Below, piece by piece: positions 18,323 to 42,392 of a stretch of DNA of 42,392 bases (position 1 is its first letter; each line of letters opens with the position of its first letter). The position numbers and the translations under genes were made by a program. Where the stretch lies: the NCBI GenBank assembly GCA_024278985.1, contig JAJRSC010000018.1, positions 1-42,392 on the forward strand, written 5' to 3'. The notes under the pieces were generated by a model. It searched no databases, was not told the DNA's origin, and saw only the letters and a list, made by a program, of their open reading frames with translations. Source of the DNA: an archaeon. Its GTDB lineage: Archaea > AGJL01 > Methanococci > Methanococcales > Methanocaldococcaceae.

Positions 18323-19561
18323 TTACCCCTCAATTATACCATAACCAATTAATCTCCATCTTGACCCTACTCTTCTACTTATTGCTACTCTTTCACCAAT
18401 ATCAGCACATATTGGAATTCTTAGTCTTATATCTGCTATATCCTCCCTTGCTGAGGTTATAACTCCAACTGTTGTTGTAGTACCTACATTTAACATTAGT
18501 ACTTCTCCAGTTCTTAATGGCTCTATTTTAAGCTCTTCTTTACTACCAACTACTCTATCCAATAAATGAACTCTAATAGTTATTTTATCTCTAATTGGTG
18601 GTAATGTTCCTGGCAAACCTACAACACTTCCAGTTAAGGCATCTGATTTTGTTAAATAAGGGTCTAATTCTGTCCCTATACCTATTAAACCTCCAGGATG
18701 TGCTTTTTTTAGTTTTACATTTCCAGCAGCAAGAGAAACAATTTTAGTTCTTAATGGTTTCCAAAAAGTTTTATTTTCTTCAGTTACTTTTATTCCTGGT
18801 CTAATTTCAATTTCATCTCCAACTTTAAATTCTCCCTGAATAATAGCTCCTCCTAAAACTCCTCCTTTTATTTCATCAATTGGAGTTCCTGGTTTATTAA
18901 TATCAAAACTTCTTGCAACATACATTCTTGGAGTGGCTTTAGGGTCTCTTTTTGGAGTAGGTATAAAATCTTGTATAGCTTTAAGAAGAACATCAATATT
19001 AGCCTCATGATGAGCTGAAATTGGGATTATAGGAGCTTTTTCAGCAATAGTACCCTTAACAAATTCTTTTATTTGTTCATAATTCTCTAATGCTTGCTCT
19101 TCACTAACTAAATCAATTTTATTTTGGACTATAATAATCTTATCAATTCCTAATATTTCCAAAGCCATTAAATGTTCCTTAGTTTGGGGTTGAGGACATG
19201 GTTCATTTGCAGCTATAACCAATATAGCTCCATCCATTAATGAGGCTCCTGATAACATAGTAGCCATTAATGTTTCATGTCCAGGAGAATCTACAAAAGA
19301 TACTTTTCTTAAAAATTCTGTTTCAGCCAAACAATTTGGACATCTTTGTTTTGTTGTATATGTTCCACATTTTGGGCATTTCCTTATCTCACAATCAGCA
19401 TAACCTAATCTTATAGATATTCCTCTTCTTAGCTCTTCACTATGTCTATCTGTCCATACTCCTGTTAATGCTTTTGTTAAACTTGTTTTACCATGGTCAA
19501 CATGTCCAACCATTCCAATATTTACTTCTGCCTGTTTTTCTGAGGATTTTTTTCTTGGCAT
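18323..19561 (-). CDS. eif2g: translation initiation factor aIF2 gamma subunit
   Basis: [35 protein letters not shown]; ATG 19561 follows the GGTGA RBS. Confidence 0.97.
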
Positions 19562-41765: not shown

Positions 41766-41796
41766 AAAAATTTTTACATTAAATATCTGTTATGGT

Positions 41797-41810
41797 TATT
41801 TATATATATC
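41797..41810. promoter_or_regulatory. TATA element between divergent purC and the H/ACA sRNA
   Basis: TTTATATATA at 41799-41808, about 30 bp upstream of the sRNA stem and also readable toward purC. Confidence 0.5.
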
Positions 41811-41833
41811 CCCTTTAATAAATAATTATAATA

Positions 41834-41991
41834 TCCCCCTAACCAGCCGAGCCCTGTTGAGGTTCCATTAGGATAACGATGATACAAGGGGCTCGAAGTT
41901 AGGGGGACATCTTTATGGGGCTCGGGCGGGCTGTATGAGAGAGATAACTCTCGATGAAAATGATTACAGCTCAGCAGAGCCCCTAACATTA
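41834..41991 (+). ncRNA. two-hairpin box H/ACA guide sRNA
   Basis: Hairpin 1 CCCCCUAAC/GUUAGGGGG plus ACA (41907-41909); hairpin 2 GGGGCUC/GAGCCCC plus ACA (41986-41988); each has an internal pocket 14 nt from ACA and UGA...GAUGA K-turn-like motifs. Confidence 0.88.
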
Positions 41992-42392
41992 CAAAACATA
42001 CATTTTAAATATTCAAGGTTTTTATTTGCCATAGGAACTGGATGGTCGAATGCTTGACCCCTATAATCAATTAAAAAAAGCTCTTTTTTTGCTCTAAAAG
42101 CTGATGAAAAAACAGTTTTTTTAAATAGCTCTCTGTCAATATGATGAGAGCAGGAACAGGTTATTAAAAATCTTTTTGCTAATTTTATTCCTAAATAATT
42201 TAAAGATGAATATCCTCTTAAAGCATTTTTTATATCATCCTCTGAACTTGTAAATGCTGGAGGGTCAAGGATAGAGATATCAAAGGATGTATTTTTATTT
42301 AAAAACTCTTCTAAGACAGAGAAGGCATTACCCTCTATAAATTCATATCTATCTTTAGGGATATTATTAAGTTCCATATTTTCCTCTGCCAA
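41964..42392 (-). CDS. RlmI-like SAM-dependent rRNA methyltransferase, 3' part (truncated by the window edge)
   Basis: FD..ILDPPAF, TCSCS, Q..DHP and YLK motifs. Confidence 0.85.
   Translation of the reverse strand: MAEENMELNNIPKDRYEFIEGNAFSVLEEFLNKNTSFDISILDPPAFTSSEDDIKNALRGYSSLNYLGIKLAKRFLITCSCSHHIDRELFKKTVFSSAFRAKKELFLIDYRGQAFDHPVPMANKNLEYLKCMFCNVRGSAEL

Follow-up and report, generated by a model that had tools for sequence, protein, structure and literature searches.

The window (the whole stretch of archaeal DNA analysed here, 42,392 nt long) carries near its 3' end, on the plus strand, a GC-rich hairpin whose flanking upstream genes are purC/purS (minus strand) and PAN. Judged from sequence and comparison, it is the first (motif 1) of the two hairpins of a ~160-nt box H/ACA guide sRNA (~41830-41990, plus strand), and the parts of this gene are as follows (rRNA positions in E. 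coli numbering).

41799..41806, plus strand: putative TATA box TTTATATA of the sRNA gene, ~27 nt 5' of motif 1
41834..41909, plus strand: H/ACA motif 1 (lower stem, pocket, upper stem, K-turn, ACA); core in 40/40 genomes
41835-41843 with 41898-41906, plus strand: motif 1 lower stem, CCCCCUAAC with GUUAGGGGG, read in the sequence
41844..41850, plus strand: motif 1 5' guide strand CAGCCGA, of which AGCCGA (41845-41850) pairs with 23S U2506-U2511
41851-41857 with 41884-41892, plus strand: motif 1 upper stem with an AA bulge, opening with GCCC 41851-41854 / GGGC 41889-41892
within 41851..41892, plus strand: predicted L7Ae site of motif 1 (K-turn/K-loop type, from its sequence signature) and apical stem-loop
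41893..41897, plus strand: motif 1 3' guide strand UCGAA, of which UCGA (41893-41896) pairs with 23S U2500-A2503
41907..41909, plus strand: ACA box of motif 1 (ACA or AUA in 41/41 rows)
41917..41988, plus strand: H/ACA motif 2 (fold -34.7 kcal/mol, z -6.24; stem covariation)
41917-41923 / 41977-41983, plus strand: motif 2 lower stem GGGGCUC/GAGCCCC
41924..41928, plus strand: motif 2 5' guide GGGCG, pairing with the 23S C2556-C2560 equivalent (CGCCC)
41929-41935 / 41965-41971, plus strand: motif 2 upper stem, closing pair G.U
U41936.U41964, and 41937-38 with 41962-63, plus strand: K-turn-type layers of motif 2, the latter a tandem G.A
41972..41976, plus strand: motif 2 3' guide CAGCA, of which CAGC pairs with 23S GCUG (2550-2553)
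41986-41988, plus strand: motif 2 ACA box, 14 nt (41972-41985) from the upper stem

Motif 2 begins 7 nt past the ACA of motif 1. On the opposite strand, a 71-aa ORF can be drawn across motif 1, and a convergent ORF downstream (~41964-42392, minus strand) exits the window end. This convergent ORF shares its last ~25 nt, stop codon included, with the 3' half of motif 2, and it had no Pfam match at E 0.001.

Fold and conservation of the two hairpins

The anatomy of motif 1 can be read directly from the sequence. Above the upper stem, a U41858.U41883 layer is followed by the tandem pairs G41859.A41882 and A41860.G41881, and the gap from the upper stem to ACA is exactly 14 nt (41893-41906). An earlier note on this DNA, made from the letters alone, had taken the hairpin for a box H/ACA guide on the basis of this spacing, the two pocket strands and the GCCC/GGGC stem: every one of these elements is present where it placed them, the spacing holds on an exact count, and the H/ACA reading is supported by canonical geometry and by conservation in 40/40 genomes of the class. 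The hairpin is thus real, but the note had missed the second hairpin, the A-loop (U2554) pocket and the kinship with HgcG/Pab40 described below.

Motif 1 has a folding energy of -35.2 kcal/mol (z -4.28; 0/200 shuffles as stable) and lies within an island of 0.50-0.51 GC, whereas the whole genome is 27.5% GC. Since the reverse strand folds about equally well (-36.5 kcal/mol), the strand was called from the ACA boxes, K-turn, promoter and model matches, not from energy. The minimum free energy fold of the free RNA zips three pocket pairs (CGA 41848-50 with UCG 41893-95), an unavoidable closure because the target flanks are self-complementary. A small pocket in the style of that fold (CCAGC/AAG) was considered and rejected, as it yields only 2+5 or 3+5 target sites. 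Passages of PMC2377435 describe active motifs as having 14-15 nt to ANA, a K-turn or K-loop, and an upper helix of 5-6 bp. The spacing of 14 nt and the ANA box found here agree with that description. In both motifs here, the upper helix comprises 7 bp plus one U.U or G.U layer, or eight layers, though counting conventions may differ from those behind the 5-6 bp of that source; the Rfam HgcG consensus draws 7 bp for the upper helix of its motif 3.

A DNA search at BLAST level (query 41780-42010, 41 genomes) returned only AT-rich upstream matches at other loci, because the RNA is too diverged. The literal pattern AGCCGA..UCGA..ACA gave 7 matches among 17 family genomes, with hairpins only in the window genome (G000) and G013, and a reversed control pattern matched about equally often. 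The G013 homologue has the same pocket strands and covarying stems, set among neighbour genes that differ from those of the window. A covariance model of two sequences (R1) found the RNA in 12/40 genomes, then in 3/5 more on a second look; a model of 15 sequences (R2) found it in 40/40 genomes of the class, namely 16/16 of family f1, 23/23 of f2 and the window's own genome. The phylum-level search comprised the same 40 genomes and added none. An A/T-rich TATA-like box stands at a similar upstream distance in most of the 28 relatives compared.

In a 31-row alignment, which leans towards the model structure because it was fitted to it, 92.6% of cells pair versus 80.5% in shuffles, and 19/32 pairs have changed on both sides (0/500 shuffles match this), while the pocket-strand columns are invariant. 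The both-side changes include 5/5 pairs of the motif 1 lower stem, 7/7 of the motif 2 lower stem and 5/10 of the motif 2 upper helix. All 41 rows for motif 1 (the 40 genomes and the extra G018 copy) retain CCGA, UCGA followed by 10 nt and ANA, and the "8 nt-GA ... GA-8 nt" K-turn signature: tandem GA/GA, one layer of U.U or G.U, and a C-stem of GC/GC. For motif 2, GGGCG is kept in all full-length relatives compared, and the 3' guide is CAGCA in relatives, with CAGUA in G017, G020 and G038 and CAGCU in G008.

Some features of motif 1 vary. Most relatives lack the pair that closes the upper stem: either a guide A pairs within the RNA, which may leave UGU unpaired, or there is one extra U. An unpaired 5'-UNN-3' trinucleotide can still be active according to passages of PMC2377435. 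Pairing through UCGA gives a 3' guide duplex of 4 bp in this RNA, against 5 bp in several relatives. The same passages state that the stability of this duplex matters most, and that a 4-bp duplex with two G.U pairs failed.

Besides the full gene, G018 carries motif 1 once more as a lone hairpin (L065, C1:356196-356289). The single motif-1-type hairpin of G032 (L064, C1:619640-619733), the only one found there, matches that copy in its guides and in its score (32.2 bits). On the minus strand of G006 (L039, C30), the motifs (1501-1648 and 1674-1769) are split by an AT-rich insert with a small hairpin and appear as two model matches.

Complementarity and covariation with 23S rRNA

The organism's own 23S rRNA gene is split in the assembly: contig C4 closes with its 5' part, contig C5 begins with model positions 1887-2987, and ~650 nt (model positions ~1232-1886) between the two are absent. 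On one strand of contig C5 (1-2227), the 23S 3' part (1-1110) is followed in the same orientation by 5S rRNA (1166-1280) and then RNase P RNA (1334-1591). At C5:716-727 the 23S reads exactly UCGAUGUCGGCU, a 12-mer that occurs once on the forward and nowhere on the reverse strand genome-wide; its reversed control has 0 genome matches. The earlier note had named this target and proposed pairing the hairpin with the organism's own 23S, where the match is indeed exact. Because the same 12-mer begins at 2500 in E. coli K-12 rrlB (2904 nt), the dinucleotide left unpaired by motif 1 is U2504-G2505, flanked by 4+6 Watson-Crick pairs. The note's assignment to U2504 thus holds by E. coli numbering, and guide-target covariation (below) supports the target. 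Motif 2 forms 4+5 Watson-Crick pairs with the A loop, GCUG-UU-CGCC(C), leaving U2554-U2555 unpaired.

On the complete 16S and 23S of a relative, 5/2000 shuffled guides reached the motif 1 score and 90/2000 the motif 2 score. Across both strands of the whole 1.1-Mb genome, each motif's 23S site is the sole all-Watson-Crick site of its strength; the scan for motif 1 gave three weaker sites, which depend on G.U pairs and lie in AT-rich DNA. When the guides of two relatives were compared with their own complete 16S and 23S, the U2504 site was the top or only match.

Other registers and targets were considered for both motifs. A motif 2 register with strands GGGCGG/UCAGCA, directed at the 5' end of 16S with two G.U pairs, was rejected since it fails in G013; in the accepted register a G.U/A-U pair closes the stem, and both the RNA in the window and that of G013 then have an all-Watson-Crick site in the A loop and a spacing of 14 nt. 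The sequences of relatives also permit a U2555 register of motif 2 at 15 nt. For motif 1, U2496 (the site of Pab40 motif 1) was rejected as a target, as the pocket strands are unable to pair around it.

The 23S site was readable in 30 of the 40 genomes, the other assemblies being without it. Across these 30 (related genomes that do not count as independent), position 2510 and its partner in the guide never mismatch: the pair is U:A in 26 genomes, C:G in 3 and U.G in 1. The covarying guide base is G41846 in the window. C2510 is found in G000, G013 and G008 and U2510 in the other 27, and G002 has the wobble G guide. The four genomes whose guide has G here seem to form one subgroup, and the change at 2510 may therefore be a single event that passed through a G.U intermediate. 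At the duplex edge, position 2512, the same comparison gave C:G in 7, U:A in 13 and a mismatch in 10. This change at 2510 on both sides, between two unlinked genes, is the strongest argument that motif 1 pairs with the 23S strand. In G031, G033 and G036 (L056, L060, L059) the guide is GAACCGA, as in the C2512 group, while the rest of the genus has U2512 with AAACCGA; their assemblies do not include the 23S site, for which this guide predicts C2512.

Protein partners and related guide RNAs

By profile search, the window's own genome encodes Cbf5 (98.1 bits), Nop10 (76 bits, contig C23) and two L7Ae-family proteins (108.4 and 80.9 bits), all above cut-off, and Gar1 gave a weak match in an 84-aa ORF (24.1 bits, below the 29.3 cut-off; E 2.6e-5). 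A weak Nop10p-profile match was also noted within the window itself (19319-19390, minus strand; 23.8 bits, sub-cut-off), inside a 420-aa ORF. No RluA/RluC-family gene (PF00849) turned up in the organism's genome (85.8% complete) or in any of four archaeal control genomes. The E. coli enzyme RluC makes pseudouridine at 955, 2504 and 2580, as given in passages of PMC7600485 and PMC12710931, and the earlier note's attribution of E. coli pseudouridine 2504 to RluC accords with these sources. The proposed guide and RluC would thus act on the same 23S position, but RluC is a stand-alone protein without a guide RNA and has two further sites.

Rfam gave 0 gathering matches in the window. Its best lead, in a 401-nt search, was RF00064 (HgcG/Pab40) at 15.0 bits (E 0.044; gathering score 77), so the Rfam search that the earlier note had suggested returned no family at gathering score, with HgcG/Pab40 at 15 bits only. 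In f2, the sister family, the gene carries a third hairpin 3' of motif 2, and four such loci (L042, L046, L050 and L054) align end to end with RF00064 (47.5, 44.4, 36.4 and 25.1 bits), motif 1 on motif 1. Because of this alignment, the RNA is by sequence a diverged relative of the HgcG/Pab40/Pf7/Afu4 guide that falls below the Rfam threshold. Outside the window, contig C18 of the same genome (32126-32186, minus strand) carries a separate single-hairpin H/ACA sRNA that resembles HgcG/Pab40 motif 3; its pocket strands read GGUUAGC / UGUUAA, its K-turn contains GAUGA, and it has an ACA box and a run of T. Since f2 has all three hairpins in one gene, the window's genus has a split, 2+1 arrangement. 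The C18 hairpin agrees with the Pab40-motif-3-like guide reported from M. jannaschii in the cited part of PMC4652768. The RNA in the window thus resembles HgcG/Pab40/Pf7/Pho40/Afu4 (RF00064; Thermococcales, Archaeoglobus) in being a multi-hairpin archaeal H/ACA guide for the peptidyl transferase region of 23S, but those guides have three motifs in one RNA, whereas here two hairpins stand together and the motif-3-like hairpin lies on contig C18.

To compare the targets of the known guides with ours, 92 was subtracted from P. abyssi positions to give E. coli ones. We derived this offset from the correspondences 2549/2457, 2672/2580 and 2697/2605, themselves inferred from the listed targets of Pab35 and a remark on RluE, RluB and RluC in a passage of PMC2377435. 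According to the same source, as excerpted, Pab40 motif 1 guides P. abyssi 2588, and Afu4 motif 2 is proposed for the A-loop equivalent of P. abyssi 2647; by the offset these are E. coli U2496 and U2555. The predicted target of motif 1 in the window thus lies 8 nt downstream of the one in Pyrococcus, and motif 2, like Afu4 motif 2, is directed at the A loop, where the two sites (U2554 here) adjoin. In Thermococcales, where the same rRNA stretch was probed, the consulted passages of PMC2377435 and PMC6138745 list pseudouridine at P. abyssi 2585, 2588 and 2603 (E. coli 2493, 2496 and 2511 by the offset), and the U2504 equivalent is not among these. A functional parallel is Pab35 of Pyrococcus abyssi, an archaeal H/ACA sRNA that replaces RluE, RluB and RluC at three 23S sites (PMC2377435, in part). 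It is a different RNA, however, and its RluC-type site, P. abyssi 2672, corresponds by the offset to E. coli 2580, not 2504.

For motif 2, a eukaryotic parallel exists at the position predicted here. Yeast snR10, the guide for 25S pseudouridine 2923 in the A loop, would act at the E. coli U2554 equivalent by an offset of 369, but it is a snoRNA with H and ACA boxes, without a K-turn and with no sequence homology to motif 2. The correspondence of yeast 2826 to E. coli 2457 in the cited part of PMC11077068 is consistent with that offset. The papers returned by a literature search report no pseudouridine at the U2504 equivalent in archaea or eukaryotes and no H/ACA guide for it; the M. jannaschii copy of the RNA may already be listed in early sRNA surveys.

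Predicted function and its alternatives

Three other explanations of motif 1 need to be weighed. The hairpin could be non-functional: a chance GC-rich palindrome, a terminator of the flanking genes or part of a coding sequence. Its reverse strand folds equally well, Rfam gave no family at gathering score, and ORFs touch both motifs (71 aa over the hairpin, minus strand; ~25 nt of motif 2 in the convergent ORF), yet the idea is scarcely credible and the comparative sequence data already contradict it: the RNA is found in 40/40 genomes, its neighbour genes differ in G013 (the sole relative whose flanking ORFs were read), and compensatory stem changes go together with invariant guides, a conserved promoter and ANA boxes. 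It is also very unlikely that motif 1 is a real H/ACA guide with another physiological target (a tRNA, an mRNA or another rRNA position), to which the 23S match is secondary. According to passages of PMC11077068 and PMC2377435, an H/ACA motif in archaea can act on several targets through 8-11 bp, with mismatches tolerated, and both the three weaker G.U-rich genome sites and the ~650 nt missing from the assembled 23S leave room for such a target. The U2504 site, however, is the top or only match in the complete 16S and 23S of two relatives, the guide changes along with rRNA bases 2510 and 2512, and the alternative genomic sites need several G.U pairs and lie in AT-rich DNA.

Alternatively, a true H/ACA RNP might pair with 23S 2500-2512 as a folding or assembly chaperone of the peptidyl transferase centre and leave U2504 unmodified; some eukaryotic H/ACA snoRNAs act in processing, not modification. 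We consider this unlikely as well, though the covariation proves selection for pairing and not for catalysis, the 4-bp duplex of the 3' guide is short, and the pocket is able to close on itself. In Thermococcales, moreover, the U2504 equivalent is not reported as pseudouridine in the passages of PMC2377435 and PMC6138745 drawn on here. Against a chaperone stands the geometry of a productive guide (a UN dinucleotide left unpaired, ANA 14 nt away and a K-turn always equally distant), which is kept in 41/41 rows, as does the design that motif 1 shares with motif 2 and the separate third motif. The targets of these two other motifs are known or proposed pseudouridine sites in other organisms.

The explanation that we regard as probable is a two-hairpin H/ACA sRNA with its own TATA promoter, whose motif 1 directs Cbf5 to 23S U2504 and whose motif 2 directs it to the A loop. 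From the observed anatomy, complementarity, conservation and covariation, we infer transcription, RNP assembly and modification of U2504 along the following lines. The sRNA would be transcribed from its TATA-box promoter, L7Ae would bind the K-turn above each pocket, and Cbf5-Nop10-Gar1 would bind the lower stem and ACA box. In the motif 1 pocket, UCGA would pair with U2500-A2503 and AGCCGA with U2506-U2511, placing the unpaired U2504 in the active site of Cbf5, where it would be isomerised to pseudouridine. Motif 2 would act alike at U2554 of the A loop (possibly U2555 in relatives). The short 3' guide duplex, the lost closing pair, the base-pair count of the upper helix and the U2555 register do not contradict the H/ACA reading.

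A broader proposal, for which the comparative data leave the chances about even, is that RNA guidance is how Methanococcales pseudouridylate the U2504 equivalent. Motif 1 of the ancient HgcG/Pab40 guide would have been retargeted from U2496 to U2504, and would then have followed the rRNA as position 2510 went from C to U, by way of a G.U pair. In the literature found, U2504 is reported as a pseudouridylation target only as a product of bacterial RluC, with passages of PMC7600485 and PMC12710931 describing the E. coli case.

These predictions can be tested directly in organisms for which tools are available: M. maripaludis, whose homologue carries the same core guides, has a genetic system, and recombinant M. 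jannaschii H/ACA proteins are in use (PMC7075261). Rfam misses the RNA in the 40/40 class genomes searched, and a family model could be built from the present alignment. U2504 lines the peptidyl transferase centre, in the binding site of several antibiotics. If the proposed function is correct, the same base would be targeted independently by RNA-guided and protein-only enzymes, a case of convergence, and the motif 1 pocket and its 23S site would offer a clean natural example of guide-target coevolution. It would also add two predicted modifications, U2504 and U2554, to the sparsely mapped rRNA of methanogens.
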